Shown piece after piece: positions 4,446-24,732 of a DNA stretch of 64,000 nucleotides (its first letter is position 1; each line of letters opens with the position of its first letter). A program made the position numbers and the translations under genes. The notes below the pieces were generated by a model. The model was given only the letters and a program-made list of their open reading frames with translations. It did not search any database and was not told the origin of the DNA. This DNA is from Nitrospinaceae bacterium (lineage in GTDB: Bacteria > Nitrospinota > Nitrospinia > Nitrospinales > VA-1): positions 768,218-832,217 of the forward strand of contig BQJC01000001.1 in the NCBI GenBank assembly GCA_021604505.1, written 5' to 3'.

Positions 4446-4712
4446 ATGCAAAGCGTTAGCCGAAAAACAAGATCTTTCCTGGAGAAGTGGCTGGACATGA
4501 CGGTCAAGGACTATGTCAAGCACATGCGTAAAGATCAGGACGGTGATTTGTACGATCTCATCGTCGGTGGAGTCGAAAAACCCCTGATTGATATTGTGCT
4601 TAAGGAAACCAATGGCAATCAGACACACGCCGCCAATATTTTAGGAATCAACCGCAACACCTTACGCAAGAAAATCACCGATTTTAAAATCAAATGCCCC
4701 AAAAAAGTCTAG
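4446..4712 (+). CDS. Fis-family DNA-binding protein (HTH_8)
   Basis: The C-terminal sequence GNQTHAANILGINRNTLRKKI matches the Fis HTH, and the protein is small (88 aa). Confidence 0.75.
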   Translation: MQSVSRKTRSFLEKWLDMTVKDYVKHMRKDQDGDLYDLIVGGVEKPLIDIVLKETNGNQTHAANILGINRNTLRKKITDFKIKCPKKV

Positions 4713-5452: not shown

Positions 5453-5485
5453 TTTTTTGATCGACCCAATTCAGGATAAATATCT

Positions 5486-6694: not shown

Positions 6695-6713
6695 TAAGAT
6701 TGGGTATCGATAG

Positions 6714-8534
6714 ATGTGTGGAATCAGCGGCGTAGTCGGTTTAAACAATATTTCTGATGAGTTGTACCAGGGAATCCGCAATCTGGAATACCGCGGCTAT
6801 GATTCCTGTGGTGTGGCCTTGATGAACAAGACTTCCTTGATCATCAAGAAAAACATCGGCGGCGTGGAAGAGTTTTTCCGCAAGGAAAATGTTTTATCCA
6901 TATCCAGTAAAATCGGCATTGCACACACCCGCTGGGCGACCCATGGCACCGTCACCAAAAACAACACCCATCCCTTCACTTCCTGCGACGGCAGCTTTGC
7001 TGTAGTGCACAACGGCATCATATCCAATTTCCGCCCATTAAAGGACAAGTTGATCCGCGAGGGCCACGAATTTGAATCCGATACCGATTCGGAAGTGATT
7101 CCGCATTTATTGGAAAAATATTACAAGCAAACCAAGAACCTGGAGAAAACCCTTCTCAAGGTTCTCAATGTTTTAGAAGGGACCTTTGCTCTGGCCTTCA
7201 TTTCTTCCAAGGCTCCCGGTCAGATATATTGCGCCAAACGTGAATCGCCCCTCATGCTCGGAATCGGGGACGAAACCAAGTACGTCGGCTCCGATTTCAA
7301 TGCCTTCATCGACCAAACCAAAAACGCCATCATCATAGATGACGGAGAATACGCAATCATCTCCCGGGACAGCTATGTGATCAAGGACTCGGTGACCGGG
7401 CAGGAGATCCAGAAAAACATCACTAAAATCGACTGGGACAGCGAAACTTCCAAAAAAGGCGGGTATCCCCACTACATGCTCAAGGAGATTTACGAACAGC
7501 CGCAGGTAGTGACCAATGCCTTGGAACAGGACACCGATTCGTTAGATGAACTGGCGGAGATGGTTTTTCAAAGTGAGAAGACCCAGCTGGTCGGGGTTGG
7601 GACCACCTTTTATGTCGCTTCCTATGGAAATTATATTTTTTCATCATTGGCGGGGGAGTTTTGTCCGCCCATCAGTTCGGACGAGTTCCCATCCCTTGCG
7701 AACGTGGATAAAAAAAGTCTGGTGATTGCCTTGTCCCAATCGGGAGAAACGTACGACACCCTGCATGCCCTCAAGTTTGCCAGGTCCAAGGGGGCCAAAA
7801 CAGCCGCCATCGTCAATGTGATGGGGTCTTCCATTTCCAGGTTCGTCGACAAAGCCATTCTTCAAGGCTCGGGTCCGGAAATTTGTGTGATCAGTACCAA
7901 AGCGGCGTTGTCGCAGATGCTGATTTTGACGTTGGTCGCCTTGCGGGTGGGGGTGAAAAAAAAGGTCCTGACCAAAAAGGAATTTACAAAATCCATGGCC
8001 GCTTTGGGCGAACTTCCCGGAATCATTCAGAGCATACTCAACGAACGCTCCGGGTTCATTCACCGCATCGCTCACAAATATTGTAAAACCAGACACTGGC
8101 TTTATCTCGGGCGCGGCATCTATTACCCGATCGCTTTGGAGTCCGCTTTAAAGATGAAGGAAGTGGCTTATGTTCACGCCGAGGGAATGCCGGGCGGATT
8201 TCTCAAACATGGAACCCTGGCGATGATCGATAAGGATATTTTTTCGATCGTCTTCATCCCTCCCAGGGAAGACAAGAAGCTCTATGAAGCCACCATTCAC
8301 AGTGTCGATGAGATACGCGCCCGTTCGGGATTTGTTCTGGGGATTCATTTCGACGAACGCGGAAAGAACAAGGATCTCTTCAGTGAGGAACTGATTCTAC
8401 CCAGTGTCCCGCCGTTGATTGCGCCGCTCATCCAAATGGTGATCGGGCAATTATTTTCTTATTTTACCGCCACCAGCCTCAAACGCAATGTGGACAAGCC
8501 CCGGTCCCTGGCAAAGTCGGTGACGGTCGGCTGA
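6714..8534 (+). CDS. glmS: Glutamine--fructose-6-phosphate aminotransferase
   Basis: Starts with the MCGI catalytic Cys N-terminus, has tandem SIS domains, and is 606 aa long. Confidence 0.95.
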   Translation: MCGISGVVGLNNISDELYQGIRNLEYRGYDSCGVALMNKTSLIIKKNIGGVEEFFRKENVLSISSKIGIAHTRWATHGTVTKNNTHPFTSCDGSFAVVHNGIISNFRPLKDKLIREGHEFESDTDSEVIPHLLEKYYKQTKNLEKTLLKVLNVLEGTFALAFISSKAPGQIYCAKRESPLMLGIGDETKYVGSDFNAFIDQTKNAIIIDDGEYAIISRDSYVIKDSVTGQEIQKNITKIDWDSETSKKGGYPHYMLKEIYEQPQVVTNALEQDTDSLDELAEMVFQSEKTQLVGVGTTFYVASYGNYIFSSLAGEFCPPISSDEFPSLANVDKKSLVIALSQSGETYDTLHALKFARSKGAKTAAIVNVMGSSISRFVDKAILQGSGPEICVISTKAALSQMLILTLVALRVGVKKKVLTKKEFTKSMAALGELPGIIQSILNERSGFIHRIAHKYCKTRHWLYLGRGIYYPIALESALKMKEVAYVHAEGMPGGFLKHGTLAMIDKDIFSIVFIPPREDKKLYEATIHSVDEIRARSGFVLGIHFDERGKNKDLFSEELILPSVPPLIAPLIQMVIGQLFSYFTATSLKRNVDKPRSLAKSVTVG

Positions 8535-8659
8535 TCGTTTACAGGTTTTTCCCTTCAACGCCCTATCCCCTGAAGCCAACCAATAAAGGGTTGCGAACGA
8601 TAATCCCCGTCTGTTAGAGTTCTCCTTTCCTGTCATCTTCATAAAAAGAAAATAAAACC

Positions 8660-10006
8660 ATGAATACAGTTCCAACTGCTTTAACCATTGCCGGGTCGGA
8701 CCCAAGCGGCGGGGCCGGAATACAGGCTGATCTTAAGACCTTTGCCGCGTTTAAAACTTTTGGCCAATCGGTCATCAGCTCTCTCACGATTCAAAATACA
8801 TTGGGTGTGCAAGGCACGTTCGATATTCCTGCCGACACGGTAGCGCAGCAGTTGAAAGCTTTGCTGGACGATAAAAAACCGCTTGCCGTGAAGACCGGCA
8901 TGTTGGGAAACGAAGCCGTGGTCGAATGTGTTGCCCGCCAAATCAAACGGGCACGAATCAAAAAACTGGTGGTCGATCCGGTGATTCGCTCATCCAGCGG
9001 AAAAACGCTTCTATCCAAACGCGGCGTTCAGGCGCTTAAGGATAACCTTTTACCCCTGGCTTTGGTGGTCACCCCAAATATAAAGGAAGCGGAAATCCTT
9101 TCCGGTGTACGAATAGCTCAGCCTTCCGACCGGTTGAAAGCCGCCCGCGCCATTTTAAAAACCGGAGTCAAAAGTGTTTTGATCACCGGCGGGCACCTGA
9201 AGGGAAACCCGGAAGACTTTTTTTATGACGGCGGGCGTCCCGTGAAACTTGTTGCCGAACGTTTGACCCGTGAAGATTTGCACGGCACCGGCTGTGTTTT
9301 TTCTGCGGCGGTCACAGCCGGGCTGGCACTGGGGAAGCCTTTGGCTCTCGTACTGTCGGAGGCCAAAGAGTTCATGAGGCAGGCGATTTTAGGCGGCGTT
9401 CGATCTGGGGAAGGGCAGGGCAGTGTGGAGCCACTCCATCCTCTATATCAAAATGAAGAGCGGTGGGATATTTTTCAACGCGTGTCACGCGCCGCGGAAG
9501 TTTTAAAAGAAGAAAAAATCGGCCACCTCGTTCCGGAAGTGCAGTCCAATCTGGGGATGGGGCTGACAGGAGCTAAAGAACATCAGGACGTGATCGGCTT
9601 TCCTGGACGAATCGTGAAATACGGACAAGATATCGTGACCCTTTCACCGCCGCAGTTTGGAGGTTCCAGGCATGTCGCCAATATTGTTTTGACTGCCATG
9701 CGCTACGATCCCGCCAAGCGCGCCGTGATGAATATCAAGTACACCCCCGAACTCATGAAAATATGCAAGCGGCTTAAGTTCAAGACGGCCACTTTCAACC
9801 GTGCGGATGAGCCAAAGCAGGTGAGGCACAAAGAAGGGTCATCGCTTGAATGGGGAACCGACACGGCGATCCGCAAAACCGGATTTGTTCCCGACATCAT
9901 TTATGACATCGGCGGGATGGGAAAGGAAGAGATGATCCGCGTGATCAGCGAAGACGTGGAATCTCTGGTCGACAAGGTTTTAAAAATTCACTGGCTGAGT
10001 AAATAA
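8660..10006 (+). CDS. thiD: Hydroxymethylpyrimidine/phosphomethylpyrimidine kinase fused to a ThiN-type thiamine-phosphate synthase domain (ThiDN)
   Basis: The N-terminal [18 protein letters not shown] motif is ThiD. The C-terminal ~180 aa, with VPEVQSNLG...GFPGRIV, resembles ThiN. Confidence 0.85.
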
Positions 10007-10027
10007 AGTTTATCGAAAAAACCTGCT

Positions 10028-11959
10028 TTACAGCAGAGTTTGATCGATCAACACATTGGATTTTTCCCTCAGGTTTTTGATCCAGTCATTGAAAGCCGTC
10101 GTAGATTTTTGCCTTTTCAGGCGGGCGGTGATGGTTTTGATCTGTTCCTCGGTGGGTTCGCCTGCAAGCTTACGGTCCTGAACCCGGAACAGGTAGTGTT
10201 TTCTGAAAGCCGAGGCGGAGGCCGCCTGTCCTTTTTCCAGAGAAAACGCCTTGTCCTTGATATTTTGAAAATCTCCAATGCCGGGAATGGAATCCACACG
10301 GCTGAAAAACGGAGTGTGCCTGATTATCATGTCCATTTCCTTGGCGATTTTATCGAGGTCGCTCCCACTGATGAGTTTTGCGGACAGAGCTTTAAATTTT
10401 TTCTCAGTGAACTCCTGATCGGCTTTCTTTTGGGCCGCTGCTTTGACTTCTTCCCGAATCGCGTCGAGTTCAGGGATGAAGGCCGGTTTTCTTTCTTTTA
10501 TCCTAAGAATAAAAGAAGCTTCAAACGTATTGATCGGTTCGCTGACCTGCCCGTCCGCCAGGGCGAAGGCGGTGTTGAAAAACTCGGGAACCATGCCGAT
10601 ATCTGAAATGTCGTGTTTCTTTCGACTGAAAAAGTCCGATGTTTTCACTTCGACTTTTTGATCGGCCGCGGCCTGGGAAAAATCGCTTCCCTTTTCGTTA
10701 GCTTTGTAAATCCGTTTGACGATGCGGCGCGCCTTTTGCCGCGATTTAGTTTCCTTGATTCCCTTAATCACTTCTTCTTTCACCTCGGAAAGCGGTTTGG
10801 TTCTGGCTTCCTGTTTTTCATCGAGGCGGATAATATGGTAGCCAAAGGGGGATTTGACCGGTTCGCTGATTTCTCCTATCTTCAGTTTTTCCAAGGCATC
10901 ATCAAACTCAGGAACCATGGTGCCGCGGTCAAATTCTCCGAGACTCCCTCCGTTGCTGGCCGAAGAAGGGTCGTCGGATAAATCTTTGGCGGTTTTTGCG
11001 AAGTCCGCGCCTTCGCGGATTTTTTTCAATGCCTGCTCGGCTTCGGTTTTGGCCGCTTCCTCGGATGCTTTTTGCCTGTCTTCTTCGCTGGCGGCTTCGT
11101 CAACTTGGGAAGGTTCCAATTGGAAAAGAATGTGGCTGGCCTTGTACTTTTTTTTCACTCGAAAATCGCCGAGTTTTGTTTCATAATATTCCTGCAGATC
11201 TTCTTCGGTGGGTTCTATTGCGTTCTCAAAGTTTTTTGGGCTCACCTTGACGTATTCAACCCGGACCTGGTCGGGAACCTCAAATTGCGTTTTGTTCTTT
11301 TCGAAAAATTTCTTCAGGTCTTCCTCATTGACAGGTTGAGTGTCCTTAAACTGGTCTTCTGAAAAAGCAAGGTAGTCCAGTTTGACCGCTTCGTTTTCAC
11401 TATGGAATGCTTCGGTGACCTCGCTGTTTGAAACCAGCGTGTTGGAAGTGATCATTTTCTCAAGCTTCTGAATCGTCAGCGCTTCCCGTTGGCTTTCTTC
11501 AAAATCCAGGTGAGACAATCGATTGAATTTGAGATAGTTATCGTAAAAGCTTTTGTTGAACACCTTGTCTTTCTGAAAGGCTGGAAAGCTTTGAATATGG
11601 TCGACCAGTTCCTCATCGCTTACCCGGATGTTGAGGTTGTCAGCTTCAAGGAGCAGGAGTTTTCGTTGAATGAGCGCATCGAGCGCCTGGGTTTTCAGAT
11701 CCAGCCGTTGAACCAGATCTTCCGAAAACTGGCTTTTGAACTGCTCGCGGTAAAAATTGACTAAATTGTTGAAGGTTTTATCGTATTCACTGTGCTGGAT
11801 GTCGATGCCTTCCACCGTGGCAACCACTCCTCCACGCGAGCCGGTGGAGCCGCCCATTCCCCATGAGTAAAAAATGGTGCCGACAAAGGCAAAGATTATC
11901 AGCCATAAAATGGTCTTGATCATCCAGGAATTGGCGTGTTGCCGGATAAGATTGAGCAT
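10028..11959 (-). CDS. ppiD: Periplasmic chaperone / peptidyl-prolyl isomerase, PpiD-like
   Basis: Has an N-terminal TM anchor, a SurA_N-like region and a parvulin domain (HILF...GGSLGEF..G.MV.EFD...G.HII). Confidence 0.8.
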   Translation of the reverse strand: MLNLIRQHANSWMIKTILWLIIFAFVGTIFYSWGMGGSTGSRGGVVATVEGIDIQHSEYDKTFNNLVNFYREQFKSQFSEDLVQRLDLKTQALDALIQRKLLLLEADNLNIRVSDEELVDHIQSFPAFQKDKVFNKSFYDNYLKFNRLSHLDFEESQREALTIQKLEKMITSNTLVSNSEVTEAFHSENEAVKLDYLAFSEDQFKDTQPVNEEDLKKFFEKNKTQFEVPDQVRVEYVKVSPKNFENAIEPTEEDLQEYYETKLGDFRVKKKYKASHILFQLEPSQVDEAASEEDRQKASEEAAKTEAEQALKKIREGADFAKTAKDLSDDPSSASNGGSLGEFDRGTMVPEFDDALEKLKIGEISEPVKSPFGYHIIRLDEKQEARTKPLSEVKEEVIKGIKETKSRQKARRIVKRIYKANEKGSDFSQAAADQKVEVKTSDFFSRKKHDISDIGMVPEFFNTAFALADGQVSEPINTFEASFILRIKERKPAFIPELDAIREEVKAAAQKKADQEFTEKKFKALSAKLISGSDLDKIAKEMDMIIRHTPFFSRVDSIPGIGDFQNIKDKAFSLEKGQAASASAFRKHYLFRVQDRKLAGEPTEEQIKTITARLKRQKSTTAFNDWIKNLREKSNVLIDQTLL

Positions 11960-12210
11960 TCAAGGAACTCCCTTAATTATAGAAATTGTTTTATAAAGCC
12001 ACTTACTATAATAAAACCATTGGATGAATCGCAACCGTTTATATTTCAAAAAAAATAAGAAGATTTTGATTCGATCCAAAAATGGCTGATTCGCCATCCA
12101 CCGTGTAAGCATTTAGCGGGATTTTGTGATGGAAATGGCAGGTTATTTGACTTGCAATTTATTCGCCATACTGATATAACGAAAAGCTTATCAAAAACAA
12201 TAGGTTATGA

Positions 12211-13263
<1,053 letters not shown>

Positions 13264-13265
13264 CT

Positions 13266-14081
13266 GTGCCCAGAAATGGAATCAAAGGCAAACGGTTAAT
13301 CACGCTTCTCTCCTTGCTCCTCCTGGTTTCGCTGGCATTAATGACCCTCAACATCAAGCGTGAAAAAGGCCCGTTCTTTTTCGAATCCCTGGTTGTCTGG
13401 GTGATTTCTCCTTTTCAGACGTTTTTTACCCAGACCGTATCTTCCATTTCAAATGTATTCGATCATTATTTTTTTGTGGTGAACACCTCCCAGGAAAATG
13501 AGATGCTTCGCGAGCAGATCGATCGACTCTCTCACGAAAAAAACAGCTTGATCGAGAAGATCAAGGAGCAGGAACGGGTCGCCAGTTTAATCCAGAATGA
13601 AGAACCCGAGGAAAGAAGGCTGGTGATCGCCAAGGTCATTGGTAAGGATGCGACCCAATGGTCTAATGTGGTTTTTATCAATAAAGGGACGGATGACGGC
13701 ATCCAGGAAAATCTCGCCGTGGTGACCAACGCCGGAGTCATCGGACACATCATTCAATCTTCGGGAGGCACATCCAAAGTGTTGCTGATCACCGACAGCC
13801 GCAGTGCGGTGGACTCTTTGTTTCAAGATTCCCGGTTTACCGGGGTCATCGTGGGAACCGGAGAAAACGTTGCGCAGATGAAGTATGTTCCAATGAATGC
13901 CGAAGTCCAGGTTGGCGACTCCGTGCTTTCCTCCGGGCTGGGGGGAACGTTTCCCAAAGGACTGAAAATTGGGATTGTGAGTCAGGTCGTCAAAAAAAAG
14001 CAAGGGTTGTTCCAGGATATCAAGGTCACGCCAAGCGCCGACTTTTCCCGCATGGAAGAAGTGATGGTTCTATTGCCTTAA
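13266..14081 (+). CDS. mreC: Rod-shape protein MreC
   Basis: Lies immediately after mreB. Has an N-terminal TM segment, a coiled coil, and beta-barrel domain motifs (G.V....GG.S.V.L..D). Confidence 0.85.
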   Translation: MPRNGIKGKRLITLLSLLLLVSLALMTLNIKREKGPFFFESLVVWVISPFQTFFTQTVSSISNVFDHYFFVVNTSQENEMLREQIDRLSHEKNSLIEKIKEQERVASLIQNEEPEERRLVIAKVIGKDATQWSNVVFINKGTDDGIQENLAVVTNAGVIGHIIQSSGGTSKVLLITDSRSAVDSLFQDSRFTGVIVGTGENVAQMKYVPMNAEVQVGDSVLSSGLGGTFPKGLKIGIVSQVVKKKQGLFQDIKVTPSADFSRMEEVMVLLP

Positions 14082-14181
14082 AAGCCCCTGGAAACAATTC
14101 AATTGGGACCACGAGCCAGCCCCCTGGAATGAGAGGCTGGCAGTTGTAACCTTAAAGGGTGTCTTTAAATCACGTTCCCCA

Positions 14182-14697
14182 ATGCCTTTTCTAATTCAGT
14201 TCATCATTTTATTGGTTCTTTTTTCTGCCCAGACCACAATTCTTGAAAATATTTCGATTGCCGGCGTCACCCCCGATCTGATTTTGATCTTCGTGGTTTT
14301 TTGCGGAATCAATATGCACGGAGGCCGGGGCGTGGGAATGGGGTTTGCCGTCGGATTCATCCAGGATTGCCTGTCCGGCGGGCTTCTCGGAGTCAACACG
14401 CTTTCCAAAAGCCTGATTGCCTTTATCTTTTCGGCCCTGAAGGATAAAATACTGGTCGAGGGACTGCTTTCCATCTTTTTGTTCATCATATTCGCTTCCA
14501 TGCTGGACGGAATGATCTTTTATCTCGTCATGGTCACCTTATTCAAGGGCGAAATTTCGGGAAGCTTTCTATTTTCATCGGTGCCGGTTTATGCCATATA
14601 CAATGGTTGTGTCGGCCCCATTCTGTTTTACATCCTGGATCTCAACAGGAGATGGATTCACCGTAGATTTTCCAACCCCTATTTACGGCAGTCATGA
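14182..14697 (+). CDS. mreD: Rod-shape protein MreD
   Basis: A small polytopic membrane protein located between mreC and mrdA. It overlaps the mrdA start by 4 nt. Confidence 0.75.
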   Translation: MPFLIQFIILLVLFSAQTTILENISIAGVTPDLILIFVVFCGINMHGGRGVGMGFAVGFIQDCLSGGLLGVNTLSKSLIAFIFSALKDKILVEGLLSIFLFIIFASMLDGMIFYLVMVTLFKGEISGSFLFSSVPVYAIYNGCVGPILFYILDLNRRWIHRRFSNPYLRQS

Positions 14698-16610
14698 GTG
14701 TATTTCGCTATAGCGCGGATGTTTCGGAAACCGTCCGGGGAAAAATCAAGATATTTGTGGTGCTGGTCATCATTGCCTTTTTATGTCTGTGGATGCGGAT
14801 TTGGTACCTGCAGATATTAAAGGGGGCGTACTTTCAGGCCAAATCCGAAAACAACCGCGTCCGGTTGACTGCCCTTCCTGCTTACCGGGGAACCATCAAG
14901 GACCGCAACGAAGAAACCCTCGTCAGCATCCGCCCGTCCTTCAATCTTTACGTCACACCGGAAGACGCGCAAAATCTACCCGAAACGCTGAAATGGTTGC
15001 AGGAAATCATTGAATTCGACAAAGATCAGGTGTTCCAACGGATCAAGGAAACGCCGCCTTTCAAACAGGTATTGATCAAAAGAGACATCGACCGCAAGCA
15101 GGTTGCCATTGTGGAAGAGAGCAAGATGCGGCTCCCAGGCATCGACATCAAAGTCGAGCCTCTTAGAAGCTACGTTTATGGCGACATGGCGACCCACGTT
15201 CTGGGGTATTTGGGAGAGATATCCAAGACCAAACTCGAAAGCCTGAACGACCCCAGCTTTGAGCAGGGAGACTTCATAGGCAAGAACGGATTGGAAATTA
15301 TTTATGAAACCATGTTGCGCGGCAAGAAGGGGTACAAGGAAGTAGAAGTCGATGTTTCCGGCCGCGAACTGCAAACCCTGAGAAAGCTTCCGCCCAAAAG
15401 CGGCAACACCCTGGTTCTGACGCTGGACCTTCGCGTGCAGAAAGTTTTGGAAGAAGTCATGACCGGAACGCCGGAGGATCCCATTTCCGGGTCCGTCGTG
15501 GCGATGAAAGTCCACACCGGCGAGATCATCGCCATCGCCAGCAAACCCTCCTTTGACTCCAACCTGTTCGCCGCGGGAATTTCCAGGGACAACTGGAAGA
15601 CGCTTGTGGAAGATGAACTCCATCCCCTGCAACACCGGACCATCAGCGGTCAATATCCCCCAGGCTCGACCTACAAAATCGTCACCGCCCTCGCGGGACT
15701 GGAAGAAAACATCGTCACACCCGAAACGACCTTTTACTGCCCAGGCCATTTTCGATTGGGACGGGGGAAGTACCGTTGCTGGAAACGCGGCGGGCACGGC
15801 ACCGTGGATCTTCATAAAGCCCTCGTGCAATCCTGCGACGTGTATTTTTATACCGTCGGCAACCGGCTGGGCATCGACAAACTGCACGAATACGCCAGAA
15901 TGCTCGGCCTGGGCGAATACACCGGAATCCAGTTGATGGGAGAAAAACGCGGGATCAACCCCAGCACAAAATGGAAACTCGCCAGCCGCAACGAACCCTG
16001 GTTGTTGGGCGAGACCATTTCCGCCTCCATCGGTCAGGGCTACAACCTGGTGACCCCCCTTCAGCAGGCGAAAATGATGGCCACCGTCGCCAATGGAGGC
16101 GTGGCGCTGAAACCCTATCTGGTGAAAAAAATCATCGACCCCGATGGCAAAACCATCAAGGAATTTCATGCCAAAGTAGAAAACAAAATCAAAGTGCATC
16201 CCGAATACCTGGAGCTCGTGAAAAAAGCTCTGTTGGGCGTGGTGAATGAGCCCAGGGGAACGGGCCGCCGGTCGCGCCTCAAAGACATCCAAGTGTCGGG
16301 AAAAACCGGAACCGCCCAGGTGGTCAAACTAAAAGTCACCGAAGACATCGAAGATGAAGATAAAATTCCCTACCACTTTCGCGACCACGCCTGGTTCGTG
16401 GCGTTCGCCCCCTATGAAAAACCGGAAATCGCGGTAGCGGTTTTAGTCGAACACGGAGGTCATGGCGGGGCCAGCGCGGCGCCCGTGGCAAAAAAAGTGA
16501 TGGAGGCCTACTTCAAACATTACCCGCCGTATGAATTGCTGGAAAAAGCCGAATCCATTGCAAATGGAGTGCAAGAGGTGGAAAAGGAAGAAAAGCCGTC
16601 CAACCCTTAA
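14694..16610 (+). CDS. mrdA: Penicillin-binding protein 2 (elongasome transpeptidase)
   Basis: Contains a PBP dimerisation domain and the transpeptidase motifs STYK, SCD and KTGTA. Confidence 0.92.
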   Translation: MSVFRYSADVSETVRGKIKIFVVLVIIAFLCLWMRIWYLQILKGAYFQAKSENNRVRLTALPAYRGTIKDRNEETLVSIRPSFNLYVTPEDAQNLPETLKWLQEIIEFDKDQVFQRIKETPPFKQVLIKRDIDRKQVAIVEESKMRLPGIDIKVEPLRSYVYGDMATHVLGYLGEISKTKLESLNDPSFEQGDFIGKNGLEIIYETMLRGKKGYKEVEVDVSGRELQTLRKLPPKSGNTLVLTLDLRVQKVLEEVMTGTPEDPISGSVVAMKVHTGEIIAIASKPSFDSNLFAAGISRDNWKTLVEDELHPLQHRTISGQYPPGSTYKIVTALAGLEENIVTPETTFYCPGHFRLGRGKYRCWKRGGHGTVDLHKALVQSCDVYFYTVGNRLGIDKLHEYARMLGLGEYTGIQLMGEKRGINPSTKWKLASRNEPWLLGETISASIGQGYNLVTPLQQAKMMATVANGGVALKPYLVKKIIDPDGKTIKEFHAKVENKIKVHPEYLELVKKALLGVVNEPRGTGRRSRLKDIQVSGKTGTAQVVKLKVTEDIEDEDKIPYHFRDHAWFVAFAPYEKPEIAVAVLVEHGGHGGASAAPVAKKVMEAYFKHYPPYELLEKAESIANGVQEVEKEEKPSNP

Positions 16611-17176
16611 CGGACGAAAATGTCCACGCTCGCCGCATTTTCGTGGCCGGATTCCAGAAGACGGTAGAGCAATCGGTAAGAGCCGCTTCTGACAAAACCC
16701 AACCGGATACTTTTATTATGCGGGAGTTTTTTCAACGAGAAAACTTCCTCGTTGCTGTCCACATGGCATAACGAAATATCCTGCAGAGAATCCTCGTGGT
16801 CATTTTTTAGAATGACGCCGGATTTGGGGGACACGAAAACAGGAGCCGGATGTTGACTAGCGTGTTTCATGTAAATGGTGGTGGACTTGAACCCGGTACC
16901 CCGGTTCAGATTGAACTTCCCCGTCCAGGGATGTTCCCAATAACTGAATTCAATAAACCGTTCATTGATGAACTGAGCAAAAACCCGGTTTTCGATCTGC
17001 CGTTCGGGGTCTTTCAAAAGTCGATTCACGTTAACACGCATTGAGGTTAATGAGGCACGTTCAATGTAAAACGAAGCGCTGGCGGCGGCAATCAGCATAA
17101 TTCCTAAAAAAAGTGTAGGAAAATTCCTAATAGGCCGGAAAAAAGTTGTGCGGGGCGGAGGGCTAACCCCCCTCAA
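16607..17176 (-). CDS. Hypothetical membrane-anchored protein (189 aa), no recognisable family
   Basis: A single N-terminal TM segment (FPTLFLGIMLIAAASASFYI) and a probable TTG start. Its stop codon overlaps the mrdA stop within the sequence TTAA. Confidence 0.5.
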   Translation of the reverse strand: MRGVSPPPRTTFFRPIRNFPTLFLGIMLIAAASASFYIERASLTSMRVNVNRLLKDPERQIENRVFAQFINERFIEFSYWEHPWTGKFNLNRGTGFKSTTIYMKHASQHPAPVFVSPKSGVILKNDHEDSLQDISLCHVDSNEEVFSLKKLPHNKSIRLGFVRSGSYRLLYRLLESGHENAASVDIFVR

Positions 17177-17178
17177 TT

Positions 17179-17292
17179 GCAGAAAAAGGGATGGAAGCGT
17201 ATTTTAACCATTGCCCGCCGTTTGAATCGGTGGAAACAGCCGAGACAAAAAACGCGCCCGTTCCTGCCGATGAGGGAAGTGAACCGCAGTAG
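17179..17292 (+). pseudogene. Displaced, diverged copy of the mrdA 3' end (encodes AEKGMEAYFNHCPPFESVETAET... followed by a stop)
   Basis: By manual alignment, 54 of 69 nt match mrdA 16488-16556. The frame is kept through to a stop at a similar distance. Confidence 0.6.
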
Positions 17293-17368
17293 TTTTCCTG
17301 TGCTTAGGCCCGAGAATGGAAAGGGTGGCGGCAAGATTTCCACGCGTTAAATAAAAGTAAATTTGTTT

Positions 17369-18460
17369 TCAGACCAATTTTAACTTTAGAAAGTCCTTAT
17401 CTTTCTTTTTAGATTCTTCTAATTGTTTAGGCAAACCAACTAAGCCAAATACAAGATTTTCAATTTCATAAACTGGAATATTTAATTGAGAAGCAATATC
17501 TTTTTTTGTGATTCGATCATTCCATAAATCTGTAAAAACCTTTTTCCATACGGTAGAAATTTCTCGCTCTATTTCATTGGGTTCTTTTGTTCGATATCCA
17601 TAACTACTTAGTTGAATACACAAGGTACGATAATTTCTTTCAGAAATGATTCCAAGTTTTTTCAACCTATATGTAAGGGCCATAACTGATACCCGCCATC
17701 TTTTCTTTGCATAAATCAATTGATCAATCGAAGTAATACAGGGAATTTTTGCAAGAATATCTGCTTCAGGCATGAGGAATGATGAAGCAAAATCATTTGC
17801 TTCAATTTCGACCTGCCTTCCTTGTTTAGGCCCCCCGTGCTTATGTAAAACTAAATGCCCTAACTCATGCGCGGCGTCAAAACGACTATGCTCCGCAGTT
17901 TTAAAAGTATTTAAAAAAACAAATGGAACATTTTTTTCCCAACAAGAAAACGCATCTACATTTTTTGTGTTTTCTGACAAGGAGAATACCCGCAGTCCTT
18001 TGGATTCTAAAAGCTGAACCATATTTCCAATTGGTTGCTCACCCAAGCACCAATGTTGTCGTAAAATTCTGGCAGCTACAGCTGGTTCACTTTCTTGCCC
18101 TAAATCCAATAGGTCAGGCTTCGGTAGCTCAAAACGTTCAGACACCCAATCCGAAAGTAAATATGCTAGTGACCCAGCTGCTAAAGCCGCATCTCTCTCT
18201 TTAGCGGTCATTGCAACCATACTTCTAAAACTGGCTGAGTCCTTATCTAACTCATCTAAATCATTTCCAAAAAAAAAGTCCTTAGGATATCTGAGGGCAG
18301 TAGCAATTTTTTCTATTGTTTCCTTTTTGGGAATATTATCTCCTCTTTCGATTCTGGTTATTTGAACCGGAGTTACTCCCACTAACTCTGCAAGAGCTTT
18401 ACTCGTTAGCCTACATCTCTTCCTTATCAGGCTGAATCTTTTATGGTTAAACATAGACAT
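17369..18460 (-). CDS. Fused XRE-family HTH / ImmA-IrrE (M78, COG2856) metallopeptidase
   Basis: The N-terminal HTH reads LTSKALAELVGVTPVQITRIERG, and the zinc motif is HELGH followed by E..NDFASSFLMP. I chose the ATG at 18460, which lies 1 nt after the upstream gene's stop. Confidence 0.85.
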   Translation of the reverse strand: MSMFNHKRFSLIRKRCRLTSKALAELVGVTPVQITRIERGDNIPKKETIEKIATALRYPKDFFFGNDLDELDKDSASFRSMVAMTAKERDAALAAGSLAYLLSDWVSERFELPKPDLLDLGQESEPAVAARILRQHWCLGEQPIGNMVQLLESKGLRVFSLSENTKNVDAFSCWEKNVPFVFLNTFKTAEHSRFDAAHELGHLVLHKHGGPKQGRQVEIEANDFASSFLMPEADILAKIPCITSIDQLIYAKKRWRVSVMALTYRLKKLGIISERNYRTLCIQLSSYGYRTKEPNEIEREISTVWKKVFTDLWNDRITKKDIASQLNIPVYEIENLVFGLVGLPKQLEESKKKDKDFLKLKLV

Positions 18461-18461
18461 C

Positions 18462-19106
18462 CTATTTTCGTGCAATATTAACTTCAAATTCCTTAAAATC
18501 ACCATCATCACCATCATCAAAATTTGACAATGAAAATTCAGGAAGATCTCCATCTCCATCTTGTAGGAGAAAAATTCTTTCTAAAAATCCAGAGAACTGA
18601 CCACAATCAACTGATTTCGGCAGGGACAACTCTGCTGAAATAATACCTTGATTTTCAGATACGCACAGATACCAAGCTGAAGTTTTATTTGCAGGCATTG
18701 CTCGATTTATTTCCTCCTCAGAAAATAAAATCCCTTGATTGTTAGAGACAGTCCGCTCAGACCCTGGACCTTTTTTTGACCTGGCTCTTGGTTCCCAATT
18801 CTTTTCGGATGCACGATCAACATTCTGAAAAATAATTTTTATTGTTGCTATAGAATTTACTATTCCCTCTACAGAATCTTTTCTATTGATTTGCCACCCT
18901 TGGGAACGAAGGATTTCCCTCAGAGACCTTGTTCCCGCAAAATATGCTAACGACCCTGGGGCATTTGCTGCATCATTATCGGTACAACTATTTCGAGCTA
19001 ATACAGCATCGTGGATTACCTTAATAAGATCGGAACGAACTAAACCCATTTTCTTCAATTTTTTACCAACTTCATCACTATCTTCTAATATCCTTGCCAG
19101 TTCCAT
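18462..19106 (-). CDS. Hypothetical protein (214 aa) with an acidic D/G-rich C-terminal tail; no family recognised
   Basis: An intact ORF with RBS GAGGTG upstream, tightly coupled to the ImmA-like gene. The sequence is AT-rich. Confidence 0.65.
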   Translation of the reverse strand: MELARILEDSDEVGKKLKKMGLVRSDLIKVIHDAVLARNSCTDNDAANAPGSLAYFAGTRSLREILRSQGWQINRKDSVEGIVNSIATIKIIFQNVDRASEKNWEPRARSKKGPGSERTVSNNQGILFSEEEINRAMPANKTSAWYLCVSENQGIISAELSLPKSVDCGQFSGFLERIFLLQDGDGDLPEFSLSNFDDGDDGDFKEFEVNIARK

Positions 19107-19135
19107 AAGACACCTCGTACGTTAATATTCGTGTG

Positions 19136-19164
19136 AATTTTTACATAAAAAATTAACATGGTCA
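19136..19164 (-). promoter_or_regulatory. Candidate promoter of the two-gene cassette
   Basis: On the minus strand: TTGACC (19164-19159), a 17-nt spacer ending in TGT, then AAAAAT (19141-19136). Confidence 0.3.
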
Positions 19165-19225
19165 AGAGATTCATGGTAATTTTTTCGTCATATCGAAACA
19201 GGTGGGAGGGATATAGGTTCTTCCA

Positions 19226-19348
19226 TCAAGCAGAAATCATCAGATCTTTATCGTGTAAACGCTTGATGCGGTCGCGGAGTTCGGCGGCTTTTTCAAACTC
19301 CAGATTTTTGGCCGCCGCGAACATTTGTTTCTCCAGCCGCGCAATCAA
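19226..19348 (-). pseudogene. Displaced duplicate of the uvrB 3' end (last 40 codons plus stop)
   Basis: Encodes [40 protein letters not shown] followed by a stop. It differs from uvrB 20203-20325 at 14 of 123 nt, mostly at synonymous sites. Confidence 0.85.
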
Positions 19349-19424
19349 AGAAAATCATCCACAAATAATCCAATGTGAGGATTGATGATTTTCGTTTTCG
19401 TCTTTTCTTTGAAATTGGCGGGTC

Positions 19425-19754
19425 TCAAGCCAATACAACGTCTTGGGGAGATTCCCCTTTTCTTCGACGGGTGACCTGAACCCTTACCTTTCGATCCAGC
19501 TTATTCAAAAATGCAAACAACCGTTCCTGGGAGAACAGTGTGTAGCGACCGTTCATCAGGTTCGATACTTCCGGTTGCTTGATCTCCAGGAGTTTGCCGA
19601 TCTCTCGTTGCTTGAGTTTTTTCTTTTCAAGGATCATCCGCACGGAATGACCGAGTTTGGCCCGTATTAAAAGTTCTTCGGAATCATCCAGTCCCAAATC
19701 TTCAAACACATTTCCAGAACTTTCTTCAAAGGCTATTTTTTCATTTTTCTTCAT
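19425..19754 (-). CDS. higA: XRE-family HTH antitoxin (HigA-like)
   Basis: Contains the HTH LKQREIGKLLEIKQPEVSNLMNG. It overlaps the upstream toxin gene by 4 nt. Confidence 0.85.
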   Translation of the reverse strand: MKKNEKIAFEESSGNVFEDLGLDDSEELLIRAKLGHSVRMILEKKKLKQREIGKLLEIKQPEVSNLMNGRYTLFSQERLFAFLNKLDRKVRVQVTRRRKGESPQDVVLA

Positions 19755-20113
19755 GATTGTTTTTCCTTTTCTATTGCCACGGCTTCCTTATAACGCCGAG
19801 CGATCATTTCGATATCCAGCTTGGCTGTTTTTCGGCCCTTGGGAGCTTTCTTCTGAAATGCATGCAGAACGTAAACCCGTTTGCCAATCTGCACCGCGTA
19901 AACTGTGCGGTAGGTGTTGGTTTCGAAGCGGGTGACGATTTCCAGGACTCCGCTGGCCACGCCCTTAAACGGCTTGGCTTGCGGAGGTTTTGTCCCTTTT
20001 TGAACGTCAAAAAGCGCGGCTCCAATGTCCTGCCGCGCTTCCCGTGGAAACGATTGAACCTGTTTTCGCGCATCTCCCACCCATACCACGGGTTTCAGAT
20101 TGTCTTCATCCAT
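19751..20113 (-). CDS. higB: RelE/ParE-superfamily toxin, Gp49/HigB-like (DUF891)
   Basis: Matches the pattern KPVVWVG...FP...R..IG..L..VQ.G..P...KP...V..GV.EI......YR.VY......VYVLHAFQKK. Confidence 0.8.
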   Translation of the reverse strand: MDEDNLKPVVWVGDARKQVQSFPREARQDIGAALFDVQKGTKPPQAKPFKGVASGVLEIVTRFETNTYRTVYAVQIGKRVYVLHAFQKKAPKGRKTAKLDIEMIARRYKEAVAIEKEKQS

Positions 20114-20123
20114 ACTGCCTTTT

Positions 20124-20152
20124 ATGATATAAGTATTTACTTATATTTTCAA
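20124..20152 (-). promoter_or_regulatory. higBA promoter with an embedded perfect palindromic operator
   Basis: On the minus strand: TTGAAA (20152-20147), a 17-nt spacer, then TATCAT (20129-20124). The region 20127-20146 is ATATAAGTA-aa-TACTTATAT. Confidence 0.5.
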
Positions 20153-20202
20153 GAAATATATTTTAACTTTCCTGGCGGCTTTGCATGAGGAAAGGTTTTA
20201 AC

Positions 20203-22194
20203 TCAAGCCGAGATCATCAGATCTTTGTCACGCAGGCGTTTGATCCGGTCGCGGAGTTCGGCGGCTTTTTCAAACTCCAGGTTCTTGGCCGCCGCGAACA
20301 TTTGTTTTTCCAGCCGCGAAATCAATTGATGGACGTTGCCGGTGTTGTTGTATTCCTCTTCCTCTTCGGCCACCAGCGGCACGACGGCAAATTTCTCTGC
20401 CTGGCTCAGGGATTCGCCCACGGATTTTACGATCGACGCGGGGGTGATGTTGTGTTTCTCGTTGTATTCCAGTTGAATCGTTCGCCGTCGGTTCATCTCG
20501 GTGATCGCCGCCTGCATGGAGCGGGTCACCGTGTCGGCGTACATGATGACTTTGCCCTCGACATGACGGGCCGCGCGGCCCGACGTTTGAATCAGCGAGG
20601 TCGTGGAACGCAAAAATCCCTCCTTGTCCGCATCGAGAATGGCGACGAGGGTCACTTCCGGAATGTCCAACCCTTCGCGCAACAGGTTGATGCCGATCAA
20701 GGCGTCGAATTCCCCGAGACGCAGTTCGCGGATGATCTGGCTCCGCTCCAGGGTCACGATGTCGGAATGCAGGTATTTCACCTTCAGCCCCAGTTCGGAA
20801 TAATGTTCCGTCAAGTCCTCCGAAAACCGTTTGGTGAGCGTGGTGATCAGAATGCGTTCCTCTTTTTCTGCCCGTTTTAATATCTCATGGTGCAGGTCGT
20901 CCACCTGGCCTTTGACCGGTTTTATCTCGACTTCGGGATCGACCAGCCCGGTCGGGCGCACGATCAATTCCACCACCTTGCCGTCTGACTTTTCGATTTC
21001 ATAAGGCCCCGGCGTCGCGGACACATAGATCACCTGGTTGACGTGCTCCTGGAATTCATGAAATTGCAGGGGCCGGTTGTCGAACGCCGAAGGCAGGCGG
21101 AATCCGTAGCGCACGAGGGTTTCCTTGCGCGAGCGGTCGCCCTTGTACATGCCCTGCAATTGCGGCAGGGTGACGTGGCTCTCGTCGATGACGAACAGCG
21201 AGTCGTCGGGAAAATAGTCCAGAAGCGTGGGCGGCGGTTCGCCTGCCGGGCGGTCCATCAGGTGGCGCGAGTAATTCTCGATGCCCTGGCAATAGCCCAC
21301 CTCCTTGATCATTTCCAGATCGAACATCGTCCGCTGATCGATGCGTTGCGCCTCGACCAGCAGGTTCTGGCTTTCAAAATAGTGCACGCGCTCTATGAGT
21401 TCCTCGCGGATGGCGGCAATGGCCTTGTTCAGCAGTTCCTTGGGGGTCGCGTAATGACTGGCCGGGTAAATGGCGATGCGGTCCAGATCGCGGATGCCTT
21501 TGCCCGTTAATGGGTCGAAAGCCTGAATGCGGTCGATCTGGTCGCCAAAAAACTCGATGCGCACGGCTTCGTTGCGTTCGTAGACCGGCAGCACTTCCAC
21601 CACATCGCCGCGCACCCGGAACGTGCCGCGCTGGAAGTCGATATCGTTGCGCTTGTACTGGATGTCCACCAGCTTTTTCAACACCTGTTCCCGGTCGATG
21701 GTCATGCCCCGTTCGGCAAACACCAGCATGCCGTGATAGGCTTCCGGCGATCCCAGTCCGTAGATGCAGGAGACGCTGGCGACGATCACCACATCCCGCC
21801 GTTCAAACAGCGAATGCGTGGCGGCGTGGCGCATTTTGTCGATTTCATCGTTGATGGAGGCGTCTTTTTCGATGTACGTGTCGGTATTGGCGAGATACGC
21901 TTCCGGTTGATAGTAATCGTAATAACTGACAAAATAGCCCACCGCGTTTTCCGGGAAAAAGGCTTTGAATTCGCTGTACAATTGCGCCGCCAGGGTTTTG
22001 TTATGCGCCAGGACCAGCGTCGGTTTTTGAATCTCCTGAATGACGTTGGCGATGGTGTAGGTTTTCCCGGACCCGGTCACCCCCAGAAGCGTTTGCCGGG
22101 GGGTCGCGGAATCGCAGTTTTTCACCAGTTGTTCGATGGCTTTGGGTTGATCGCCGGCAGGCTGGAACTCGGCGTGCAATTTGAACGGGGTCAT
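20203..22194 (-). CDS. uvrB: Excinuclease ABC subunit B
   Basis: Contains GVTGSGKT, helicase motifs, and a C-terminal UVR domain ([13 protein letters not shown]). Length 663 aa. Confidence 0.97.
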
Positions 22195-22593
22195 GGCAAA
22201 TTTCGGGTTGTTAAATGAAGGTTTTAAAATAACATAATTTATGTGGTAAATTAAGAAAACTGGAGCTTTGCGAATCAGCAGAATCCGCTGTTTCTCTCCT
22301 CAACTCCTTCGCGGAAGGCGAGCTTGCTCACGACGCGAAACGTTTTTCGAGGCCAGCGCACCGCTGGACGAAATAATCATATTCAATGGGTTTTGTTAAG
22401 AATAGAATTCTTCCCTGACCCCTGTGATTTAACATTAGCTCTCATGCCCGGAACGGGTACTTTAAAAAGGGGGAATCGAATGCTCCCCCCTTCAAGAAGG
22501 GAGCCGGGGGGATTTGTACCCTCCCAGCACCATCGGGGATGACCGTCTTGATGCAAAGGTCGCCTCGGGGTCAAAGAGAAAGAAAGGCAATTT

Positions 22594-23784
22594 GTGGATT
22601 CCAACGAGGAAATAATCAAGACCTTCCAGGCCGGTGATTCCACCATCACGCTGGTGGGCACCGCACACGTATCGCAAAAGAGCGTCGAACTGGTGGAAAG
22701 CGAGATCCAGAGCGGAAAATACGATTGCGTGGCGGTGGAGCTTTGTCAGCCCCGGTTTGAGAACCTGATCAACCGGTCGGGATGGAAAAATCAGGACATC
22801 TACCAGATTTTCCGGCAAAAGCGGGCGACTTTACTGCTCATCAACCTGGCGTTGTCCGCCTATCAAAAACGGTTGGCCGAAAAGGTCGGGGTGGAAGCCG
22901 GTCAGGAAATGGTGCGCGCGATTGAATTGTCCAAAGAGAAAGACCTCCGCCTGGAGGTCATCGACCGCAACATCACCACCACGCTTCAACGCCTGGTGAC
23001 CGGCGTTTCCTTCTGGCAGAAATTGAAGATCTTTTCAGGATTGGTGGCCGGTATATTCGTGGGCGAGGAAGTGAGCGAAAAGCAGATTGAAGAACTTAAA
23101 AAAGGCGACATGCTGCAAACCGTGGTCGAGGAATTTGGCGAGACCCTGCCGCAATTCAAGCAAGTCCTCATTGATGAACGCGACGAATACATGACGGGCA
23201 ATTTGCTTCGGCTCACGCAATCGCCGGACGCGCCAAAAAACATCCTTGCCGTTGTGGGGGCCGGGCACCTGATCGGCATGATGCCGGCGTTCTCCAACCC
23301 GCCCGATGAAAAGCGCTTGCAGGAGCTGGATGAAAAACCGCCTCCCAGCCGGGTCGGTTACTATATAGGCTGGACCATTTGCATCCTGATCCTCAGCATG
23401 TTTTACGTCGGTTACAGCCGTTCGCCGGAATTGGGCCTGCAACTGGTGATCACCTGGGTGGCGTTGAACGGCGGGTTGAGCGCTCTCGGAGCGGCGATTG
23501 GACTGGCGCATCCCCTGTCGATATTGACGGCTTTTGTGGCCGCGCCGCTCACCTCGCTGAACCCGACCATCGGCGCCGGAATGGTAGTCGGTCTGGTGGA
23601 GTCTTATCTGCGTAAACCCAAAGTCAGCGATTTCGAGGCCCTGCGTGAGGACATCGGCACCATGAAGATGTGGTGGAAGAACCGGGTGGTGCGGGTTCTG
23701 ATGATCTTTTTCTTTGCCAATATAGGCTCGGCAGTGGGGACTTACGTTGCCGGAGCCTCGATCGTCACACAGATTTTCGGGTGA
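22594..23784 (+). CDS. TraB/GumN-family protein
   Basis: The N-terminus reads ITLVGTAHVSQKSV, and there is a C-terminal polytopic membrane region. The start codon is GTG. Confidence 0.85.
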   Translation: MDSNEEIIKTFQAGDSTITLVGTAHVSQKSVELVESEIQSGKYDCVAVELCQPRFENLINRSGWKNQDIYQIFRQKRATLLLINLALSAYQKRLAEKVGVEAGQEMVRAIELSKEKDLRLEVIDRNITTTLQRLVTGVSFWQKLKIFSGLVAGIFVGEEVSEKQIEELKKGDMLQTVVEEFGETLPQFKQVLIDERDEYMTGNLLRLTQSPDAPKNILAVVGAGHLIGMMPAFSNPPDEKRLQELDEKPPPSRVGYYIGWTICILILSMFYVGYSRSPELGLQLVITWVALNGGLSALGAAIGLAHPLSILTAFVAAPLTSLNPTIGAGMVVGLVESYLRKPKVSDFEALREDIGTMKMWWKNRVVRVLMIFFFANIGSAVGTYVAGASIVTQIFG

Positions 23785-23790
23785 CGGGCC

Positions 23791-24732
23791 ATGGCCGATT
23801 CCCGTCCGCGGATCGCCGTCACCCCGCCGGCGTTTTGTAAATCGGCAACCCTTCGCGACGCACTCTGCAAATCGTTTCCGCAATCCATATTTAATGAAAA
23901 AAACCGCTACCTGACAGAACCCGAGCTGATCACTTTTTTACAGGATGCCGAGGGCGCCATCATCGGCCGCGACCCCGTCCATGAAAAGATGATAAAGGCT
24001 TTGCCCCGCCTGAAAATCATCGCCAAATACGGCGTCGGTCTCGACAACATCGACCAGGAGGCCCTGTGTCGTCACAATGTGAAATTCGGTTGGACTGGCG
24101 GGACCAACAGCCTTTCGGTGGCGGAGTTGACCTTAGGGTTCATGATCGGATTGTGTCACAACACGTTTTCCAGAGGATTCGCCTTAAAACAGAACGATTG
24201 GCAAAAAGACGGTGGCACTCAATTGACCGGGAAGACGGTGGGCATCATCGGCTGCGGCCACGCGGGGTCGGAAGTCGTCCGCCTGTTGGCCCCGTTCCAA
24301 TGCCGGATTCTAGTGCGCGACATCGTCGATAAAACCGGGTTTTGCCGGAACCATGCGGCTCAGGTGGCGAGTCTCGATGAAGTCATCGAACAGTCGGACA
24401 TTCTCACCCTGCACGTGCCGTTAACGGATGCGACCCGCAACCTGGTCGCCGAAAAAACCCTGGCACAAATGAAATCAACAGCTTTCTTAATCAATACCAG
24501 CCGCGGAGAGGTTGTCGATCAAAATGCGTTAAAGGCAAGCTTAAAAAATGGCGGTATTGCCGGCGCGGCGTTGGACGTGTTTTCTAAGGAACCTCCAGAA
24601 GATGCCGAATTTCTGGCCCTTCCCAACCTGATAGCAACCCCGCATATCGGTGGAAACACCGTTGAAGCGGTTGAGGCGATGGGGCGGGCCGCAATCGCCC
24701 ACCTCGAAGATTTCTTTAGAATGGAGAAATAA
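23791..24732 (+). CDS. D-isomer-specific 2-hydroxyacid dehydrogenase (phosphoglycerate dehydrogenase-like)
   Basis: Carries the NAD motif GIIGCGHAGSEV and the catalytic pattern R...E...H (TPHIGG). Confidence 0.85.
   Translation: MADSRPRIAVTPPAFCKSATLRDALCKSFPQSIFNEKNRYLTEPELITFLQDAEGAIIGRDPVHEKMIKALPRLKIIAKYGVGLDNIDQEALCRHNVKFGWTGGTNSLSVAELTLGFMIGLCHNTFSRGFALKQNDWQKDGGTQLTGKTVGIIGCGHAGSEVVRLLAPFQCRILVRDIVDKTGFCRNHAAQVASLDEVIEQSDILTLHVPLTDATRNLVAEKTLAQMKSTAFLINTSRGEVVDQNALKASLKNGGIAGAALDVFSKEPPEDAEFLALPNLIATPHIGGNTVEAVEAMGRAAIAHLEDFFRMEK

Follow-up and report, generated by a model that had tools for sequence, protein, structure and literature searches.

The 64-kb stretch of DNA analyzed here (the window), which comes from the Nitrospinaceae metagenome-assembled genome NPINA01, raises a simple question: why is its mrdA gene, which is intact and encodes PBP2, followed by a second, diverged copy of its own 3' end? 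The genes run in the order mreB, mreC, mreD, mrdA (plus strand), an open reading frame first read as 189 aa (ORF189, minus strand), the relic of the mrdA tail (plus), a low-GC gene pair (minus), a relic of the uvrB tail (minus), a HigA/HigB-like pair (minus) and uvrB itself (minus). On its two sides, 4689-16556 and 20180-24717 run collinear with the DNA of a close relative, L001, which leaves 16557-20179 as the variable stretch. A reading made from the letters of the window alone (the sequence-only reading) had proposed that ORF189 is a cargo gene that was inserted into the mrdA 3' region together with a replacement terminus. Our analysis leads to a different answer, which we favor with limited confidence, namely that the relic derives from the terminus of a foreign mrdA allele, brought in together with a predicted RosmerTA defense/toxin-antitoxin (TA) module, by homology-facilitated or illegitimate recombination in a hotspot between mrdA and uvrB.

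It is clear that the second copy is real. The live tail (16488-16552) and the copy (17179-17243) share 53 of 65 nt (82%) in a repeat search, and their local alignment scores 70 as compared with 16.1 ± 2.3 for shuffled sequences (n = 2000, maximum 29, none reaching 70). The second C-terminus that had been proposed at 17179-17292 is thus borne out against shuffled controls, and its hand count of 14 of 23 shared amino acids stands, while the nucleotide count of 54 of 69 gives way to the 53 of 65 above. When the last 150 nt of all 89 open reading frames of at least 150 aa were compared with the whole window, only two gene-tail relics appeared, that of mrdA (E = 3.5e-13) and that of uvrB (E = 5.9e-42). 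The mrdA relic is in frame with mrdA and reads AEKGMEAYFNHCPPFESVETAETKNAPVPADEGSEPQ up to a stop at 17290-17292; a terminus of the relic type reads ...PPFESVETAETKNAPVPADEGSEPQ at its end or, written as a PBP2 pattern, ...PPFESVE[TK]AETKNAPVPADEGSEPQ, and the match fits the clade consensus PPFESVE.AE. Five amino-acid changes carried by the relic are absent from the tails of all relatives. The similarity stops abruptly at 17243/17244, beyond which the distal 49 nt are unalignable, and the longest exact match between the copies, which are direct repeats 691 nt apart, is 8 nt (a word size of 9 gives no seed).

Two independent short-read assemblies (L172 and L173, which are Logan contigs of DRR328264 and DRR328265) are 100% identical to the window over 12759-19298 and 17922-19298, respectively, and because L172 spans the junction 17178/17179 this junction is not a mis-join. 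Both contigs, which are from the same organism as the window, break off at 19298 within the uvrB relic, as is expected at a repeat. A terminator and promoter scan gave nothing specific to the mrdA relic. The stretch 17179-17292 is confirmed as a genuine, non-functional relic of an mrdA 3' end, and it is no part of another conserved gene.

The gene between the two copies is a less likely traveler than had been supposed. ORF189 (16607-17176, minus strand) is indeed the only open reading frame there, but its description as a membrane-anchored orphan does not hold. A word-indexed homologue search with ORF189 gave no match besides the gene itself; a HMMER search over 1.8 billion representatives gave 10 relatives, the best of them 58% identical, and a homologue stands after mrdA, in the same orientation, in six of eight close relatives. 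These homologues have 138-140 aa, are 42-58% identical to residues 50-189, and are encoded on the strand opposite to mrdA, immediately beyond its end, in L001, L003, L004, L006, L007 and L008/L009, all of them close relatives (PBP2 78-86% identical). Every homologue aligns to residues 50-189 only, the relatives have in-frame stops within about 5-15 codons before the start of the gene, and the DNA upstream is conserved as a leader out to about 130 nt in all seven genomes (in the window up to about 17160). The true gene, hereafter ORF140, therefore has 140 or 144 aa, with a predicted start at GTG 17029 (140 aa, aligning with the ATG of the relatives) or ATG 17041 (144 aa), and the transmembrane helix of the extension is spurious, a read-through of the conserved non-coding leader. 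Conserved blocks of this leader (17042-17160, minus strand) include TTTCCTACAC, ATTAGGAAT, TGCCGATTG, TTAGCATG and CTGATAAACTT, with equivalents in L001, L003, L004, L006, L007 and L008. The leader may be a promoter or a regulatory leader; an Rfam scan of it gave no match.

The tetranucleotide TTAA in which the stop codons of ORF140 and mrdA overlap might look like a sign of insertion. The overlap is there, but the same 4-nt overlap is present in L003, L006, L007 and L008, so that it is ancestral and no insertion scar. ORF140 is the resident syntenic neighbor of mrdA in this clade and probably never moved. Its close homologues were seen only beside mrdA in this Nitrospinaceae clade; some distant members of the family (P0126, P0128 and P0129) have signal-peptide-like N-termini, and the mrdA-linked members are without them. 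The AlphaFold2 (AF2) model of the product is a beta-sandwich with a predicted local distance difference test score (pLDDT) of 75, reaching at least 80 over residues 71-144, and its top Foldseek matches are amicyanins (E = 9e-4 to 5e-3, TM 0.45-0.64), which is weak but consistent support for a modeled cupredoxin-like Greek-key fold. None of the His/Cys/His/Met copper ligands is conserved in the family alignment, where the invariant columns are N80, F116 and G120 (and M1).

The DNA with clear signs of horizontal transfer lies instead on the far side of the relic, where 17353-19166 is predicted to be a complete RosmerTA (RmrT/RmrA) module. RmrA matches PADLOC profile PDLC03946 over positions 1-350 of 357 (E = 5.2e-157) and has Pfam HTH_3 and Peptidase_M78 domains, and RmrT matches PDLC03932 over positions 7-208 of 209 (E = 2.4e-45). 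The mechanically called RmrA reading frame (396 aa) is over-extended, the real start being at 18460 (363 aa), so that RmrT, which lies upstream, abuts it. The module has a GC content of 36.8%, as compared with 53-57% in the mrdA and uvrB flanks. A second RosmerTA stands beside uvrB in the relative L005 (GCA_029261595.1), and over 17353-19166 the two are about 90% identical in nucleotides (89-93%), as opposed to 72-84% for core genes. Synonymous divergence (dS) between the window and L005 is 0.25-0.28 for RmrA and RmrT but 0.82-1.14 for mreB, mreD, mrdA and uvrB, which means that the two RosmerTA copies shared an ancestor about four times more recently than their host genomes did. A homologue search with RmrT for the donor haplotype returned L005 and tiny contigs only.

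It is the comparison with L005 that ties the relic to this module. Homology to the relic and spacer of the window is found in L005 in the stretch that separates the stop of its resident PNPOx gene from the left end of RosmerTA. Without gaps, the distal tail of the relic matches L005 10701-10738 at 29 of 38 nt (76%), a match that 0-1 of 3000 shuffles reach; the distal tail translates as TKNAPVPADEGSEPQ, followed by a stop, in the window and as AEIVPYHADKGSEGDG in L005. With gaps, 17210-17322 aligned to L005 10668-10773 scores 53, against a background of 27.6 ± 5.1, and unrelated controls score 21-29. The 76% identity of the distal tail equals the neutral expectation at the age of the island (proportion of synonymous differences, pS, 0.21-0.23) and is far above that expected at the age of the core genes (pS 0.5-0.59). 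To the right of the island, the spacer (about 50%) and the uvrB tail (about 81%) show the core-age divergence from L005. The backbone of L005 is L004/L006-like on both sides (the last 150 nt of uvrB are 91% identical to L006 and PNPOx about 90%), and its sequence switches right after the PNPOx stop, so that the foreign part of L005 is the island together with the piece of relic. The relic's distal tail was found in none of 120 retrieved live PBP2 sequences.

Within L005, 10655-10779, between PNPOx and RosmerTA, appears as a decayed piece of a foreign mrdA tail. Right after the L005 mrdA stop, at 9956-9995, some 35 nt of the 3' end of ORF140 survive, so that ORF140 has been deleted there. In the window, a candidate ORF140 3'-end remnant after the relic (17305-17335) was dropped, since its similarity of about 58% by hand count is not significant.

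The uvrB side of the interval gives a second view of the same process, and the parallel that the sequence-only reading drew with uvrB holds in that each relic is the mark of an event of recombination or insertion. Relic and live tail of uvrB differ by 14 nt, with 10 codons changed synonymously and 2 non-synonymously; because the differences are mostly synonymous, the two copies diverged as working alleles in separate lineages and not in place. L007 (ENA ERZ25072490 ctg196501) has its own, independent uvrB-tail relic, a frameshifted 94-nt piece at 7759-7852 directly after the stop of a 535-aa Galaxin-repeat gene, with a cargo of 182 and 535 aa between live uvrB and relic. The break-points of the relics vary: those of mrdA are at -114 (window) and about -85 (L005), those of uvrB at -123 (window) and -94 (L007). 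Between 16.6 and 20.2 kb, Pfam, PADLOC, NCBIfam and PHROGs on the five named open reading frames (16607-20113) and a tRNA scan gave no integrase, excisionase, transposase or tRNA. Differing break-points and the lack of a recombinase, transposase or tRNA argue for illegitimate joints and not for a site-specific att core.

We propose that the relic is the last 114 nt of a xenologous mrdA allele and was physically part of a block consisting of a foreign mrdA tail, a spacer, RmrA and RmrT. The donor would have been a haplotype with RosmerTA directly between its own mrdA and uvrB, which is plausible since the two genes are convergent neighbors and are only 25 nt apart in L170. The block would have entered by recombination with at least one illegitimate joint, at 17178/17179, some 149 nt upstream of the resident ORF140. 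Two routes can be envisaged. In one, homology-facilitated illegitimate recombination (HFIR) was anchored on the uvrB side, and a second event of this kind brought the HigBA-like pair and the present uvrB tail. In the other, a single donor fragment of 2.17 kb (17179-19348) was inserted between ORF140 and higA in one step. The stop of the uvrB relic in L007 lies 147 nt from its ORF139, nearly the same distance as the 149 nt of the window, so that the joint at 17178/17179 may mark a former end of uvrB. On either route the mrdA relic would be a passenger fragment in neutral decay that serves no function. The repeat, the ORF140 synteny, the identity and younger age of RosmerTA and the homologous piece of relic in L005 are direct results, and the direction of transfer and the recombination mechanism are inferred from genome comparison.

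Several observations weigh against this proposal. When mrdA and uvrB are compared with 6-8 relatives in sliding windows, no break-point in identity appears, as all relatives are about 75-86% identical, and the direction of transfer is not readable in the window; with L005 as the reference there is no usable break-point either, only the L004/L006-like backbone to the very end of uvrB. The relic homology in L005 is short (38 nt ungapped, z about 5-7), and no donor genome turned up in which the relic tail is the live end of mrdA. On its right the shared block stops sharply (at about 19166), in the window and in L005 alike 53-54 nt from the uvrB stop, which simple anchoring in uvrB fails to explain. 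The three clearly delimited relics are alike in length (114, 123 and 94 nt), a likeness that a random passenger end does not predict. Finally, both uvrB relics, in the window and in L007, show the order anchor gene, new tail, cargo, old tail, which by symmetry fits the replacement terminus of the sequence-only reading at mrdA.

This last point leads to the strongest alternative, that the relic is the former working mrdA end of this genome, displaced when ORF140 and a new tail were re-imported, which we regard as possible but doubtful. It would begin with an ancestor in which RosmerTA stood between the old tails of mrdA and uvrB, ORF140 having been lost as the island entered by ordinary double crossover. 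Later, a fragment from a relative, comprising an mrdA 3' part, ORF140 and the 149-nt leader, would have recombined inside mrdA and made an illegitimate joint at -114 of the old tail, and the HigBA-like pair and the new uvrB tail would have arrived likewise on the other side. In this form the topology of the sequence-only reading survives, as the re-import of a resident-type gene, whereas its cargo does not, since ORF140 is resident and the clear mobile DNA is RosmerTA. The alternative accounts well for the cargo standing between live gene and relic as at both uvrB relics, for the similar relic lengths, and for a relic frame that stays open as far as a stop at a similar distance; loss of ORF140 does occur, as seen in L005, and HFIR is an established route (PMC3240628; PMC5361080). 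Its cost is one extra event per lineage, the loss of ORF140 followed by its regain in the exact ancestral place with the ancestral 4-nt overlap, and an independent repeat in L005 (which has the ORF140 remnant and PNPOx) despite L004/L006-like flanks on both sides. ORF140 is also without a sign of recent transfer, as its closest homologue is 58% identical, and no break-point is seen in mrdA, where the relatives are too distant for a strong test.

The 3' ends of convergent essential genes, here mrdA and uvrB, could also form a general, recombinase-free landing pad, in which small defense and TA modules travel between Nitrospinaceae lineages with gene-end copies of about 100 nt as homology arms and replacement termini. 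We think this improbable; if it were true, the relics (94-123 nt) would have a function in an exchange system of cassette-like kind and would be no accidental scars.

More remote still is the scar of an integrase-borne element that targeted the mrdA 3' end, supplied a replacement end and was mostly deleted later. The 3' end of icd in E. coli K-12 is an integration site of e14 and phage 21, which supply a replacement end, and a live hybrid end with a displaced relic as direct repeats is reminiscent of this icd/icdC arrangement. We consider such an origin very unlikely, as the mobile-element genes and tRNA that were sought above are missing from the collinear flanks also, the supposed element would be only 691 bp long and made of the resident gene of the clade, the break-points differ between genomes and have no common core, and no stretch of more than 8 nt is identical between the copies.

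Tandem duplication of the mrdA tail in place, either alone or together with ORF140, and later decay of the second copy would agree with the direct repeats and with the five amino-acid changes that no relative shares. Such an event would leave unexplained that similarity ends after 65 nt, the distal tails being unrelated and that of the relic matching the relic piece in L005, and no trace of a second ORF140 copy is present. A duplication of the whole interval predicts the uvrB relic before the mrdA relic, the reverse of the observed order, and the uvrB relic differs mostly at synonymous sites; we find the explanation barely credible. Chance similarity or mis-assembly may be dismissed as virtually excluded, for although chimeric joins at repeats are a risk in a metagenome-assembled genome such as this one, the E value in the whole window, the shuffled controls, the in-frame match to the clade consensus and the two identical assemblies, one spanning the junction, all speak for a real repeat.

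The gene mrdA and the gene uvrB are convergent neighbors throughout the Nitrospinaceae loci examined, and rodA, which had been raised as a possible usual neighbor downstream of mrdA, follows it in none of them (family-level synteny was read from contig scans of genomes and metagenomes with PBP2, where the matches listed were mostly from distant taxa). In L008 ORF140 stands alone between mrdA and uvrB, and in other relatives various small genes lie between ORF140 and uvrB. We conclude that the interval between these convergent genes is a hotspot for accessory-gene exchange in this Nitrospinaceae clade. Scans for Rfam families and tRNAs found nothing in the interval that stands out from noise.

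The coordinates of all features are collected in Table 1. Between the uvrB relic and live uvrB is a further predicted gene pair, HigBA-like, with Pfam Gp49 (2.4e-20) and HTH_37 (3.7e-21) domains and a 4-nt overlap at 19751-19754, whose order of a Gp49/HigB-like toxin and then a helix-turn-helix (HTH) antitoxin is the gene arrangement of type II HigBA-like TA systems. Live uvrB is followed by a spacer that we call type-1, as in L001, L004, L006 and L008, and the uvrB relic by a type-2 spacer, as in L003, L005 and L007. The uvrB of L007 is called as two open reading frames (278 and 385 aa, overlapping at 4099-4102), owing to a frameshift or a long-read error.

Table 1. Features of the mrdA-uvrB interval, in window coordinates.
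Feature	Coordinates	Strand	Evidence or remark
mrdA (PBP2), intact, 638 aa	14694-16610	+	Pfam PBP_dimer and Transpeptidase; 78-86% aa identity to Nitrospinaceae PBP2
Live mrdA tail (last 123 nt)	16488-16610	+	Repeat copy is 16488-16552
ORF140-family gene (earlier ORF189)	16607-17041	-	Homologues at same position in 6 relatives; family alignment; AF2 model
Conserved non-coding 5' leader, possible promoter region, of ORF140 gene	17042-17178	-	Multiple alignment with 6 relatives
Relic of mrdA 3' end, last 37 codons and stop	17179-17292	+	5' side cut by junction 17178/17179
Relic part matching live tail	17179-17243		82% match
Relic part with different distal tail	17244-17292		
Spacer, relic stop to RosmerTA block	17293-17352	.	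Partly homologous to L005 spacer at equivalent place (alignment)
Predicted RosmerTA toxin-antitoxin/defense module	17353-19166	-	PADLOC, Pfam, BLAST to L005, dS, GC, promoter scan
RmrA (HTH and M78 peptidase)	17369-18460	-	
RmrT	18462-19106	-	
Promoter-like site of RosmerTA module	19165-19137	-	Promoter scan
Type-2 uvrB-downstream spacer, kind found in L003, L005, L007	19167-19225	.	About 50% identical to L005
Relic of uvrB 3' end, 40 codons and stop	19226-19348	-	89% identical to 20203-20325
Predicted HigBA-like toxin-antitoxin pair	19425-20113	-	Pfam
HTH_37 antitoxin	19425-19754	-	
Gp49/HigB-like toxin	19751-20113	-	
uvrB, intact, convergent with mrdA	20203-22194	-	Collinear with uvrB of relatives

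It is useful to set the locus beside systems that leave similar scars. The icd/icdC arrangement is alike in that a live gene with a substituted 3' end is followed by a displaced pseudo-3'-end with many silent differences. The differences are that in the icd case an integrase mediates the event, the crossover core is defined and a whole prophage separates the copies; the present locus shows none of these features.

A closer comparison is HFIR, which has been described in Acinetobacter, Streptococcus pneumoniae, Pseudomonas stutzeri and E. coli (PMC3240628; de Vries and Wackernagel, 2002, and Prudhomme et al., 2002, as cited in PMC5361080). The features in common are foreign genes trapped beside the anchor, variable break-points and no need of mobile-element genes and, on the reading proposed here, a homologous joint in a conserved gene combined with an illegitimate joint. 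Of its footprint, the non-homologous junction is clear at 17178/17179, while the homologous crossover could not be located in sliding-window identity against relatives that are about 75-86% identical, and the locus differs in that the process would here be read from genome comparison alone. The same recombination has been proposed as the cause of the orphan immunity arrays of the V. cholerae type VI secretion system (T6SS) and of the orphan 3' ends of Rhs and contact-dependent growth inhibition (CDI) loci (PMC5361080), where modules likewise arrive next to a conserved gene, the former 3' part is displaced downstream and persists as a fossil, and nested arrays result from successive events (PMC5361080). 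Those loci hold toxin tips and immunity genes whose exchange is under selection, whereas here housekeeping genes (PBP2 and UvrB) border TA and defense modules, and the mrdA relic is probably a passenger, unlike the displaced working end of those loci.

The module itself resembles the RosmerTA (RmrT/RmrA) defense/TA system discussed in PMC10440598, being a two-gene operon in which RmrA combines an HTH with an M78 zinc-peptidase and RmrT lies upstream, both proteins matching their PADLOC profiles over the full length. It differs in that the predicted module sits in a chromosomal junction of convergent genes in a marine nitrite oxidizer, on no recognizable mobile element.

For annotation, the locus advises caution, as an orphan proved to reflect limited search reach, a membrane anchor an over-extended reading frame, and a stop overlap an ancestral feature. 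It offers a clean natural example of defense and TA modules piling up between convergent housekeeping genes without mobile-element genes, in uncultured marine nitrite oxidizers, and its fossil gene ends are a record of where the pieces came from and in what order. Taken beside these systems, the locus presents no new mechanism or insertion system; it is one more recombination scar of a known kind, in a hotspot for accessory genes.

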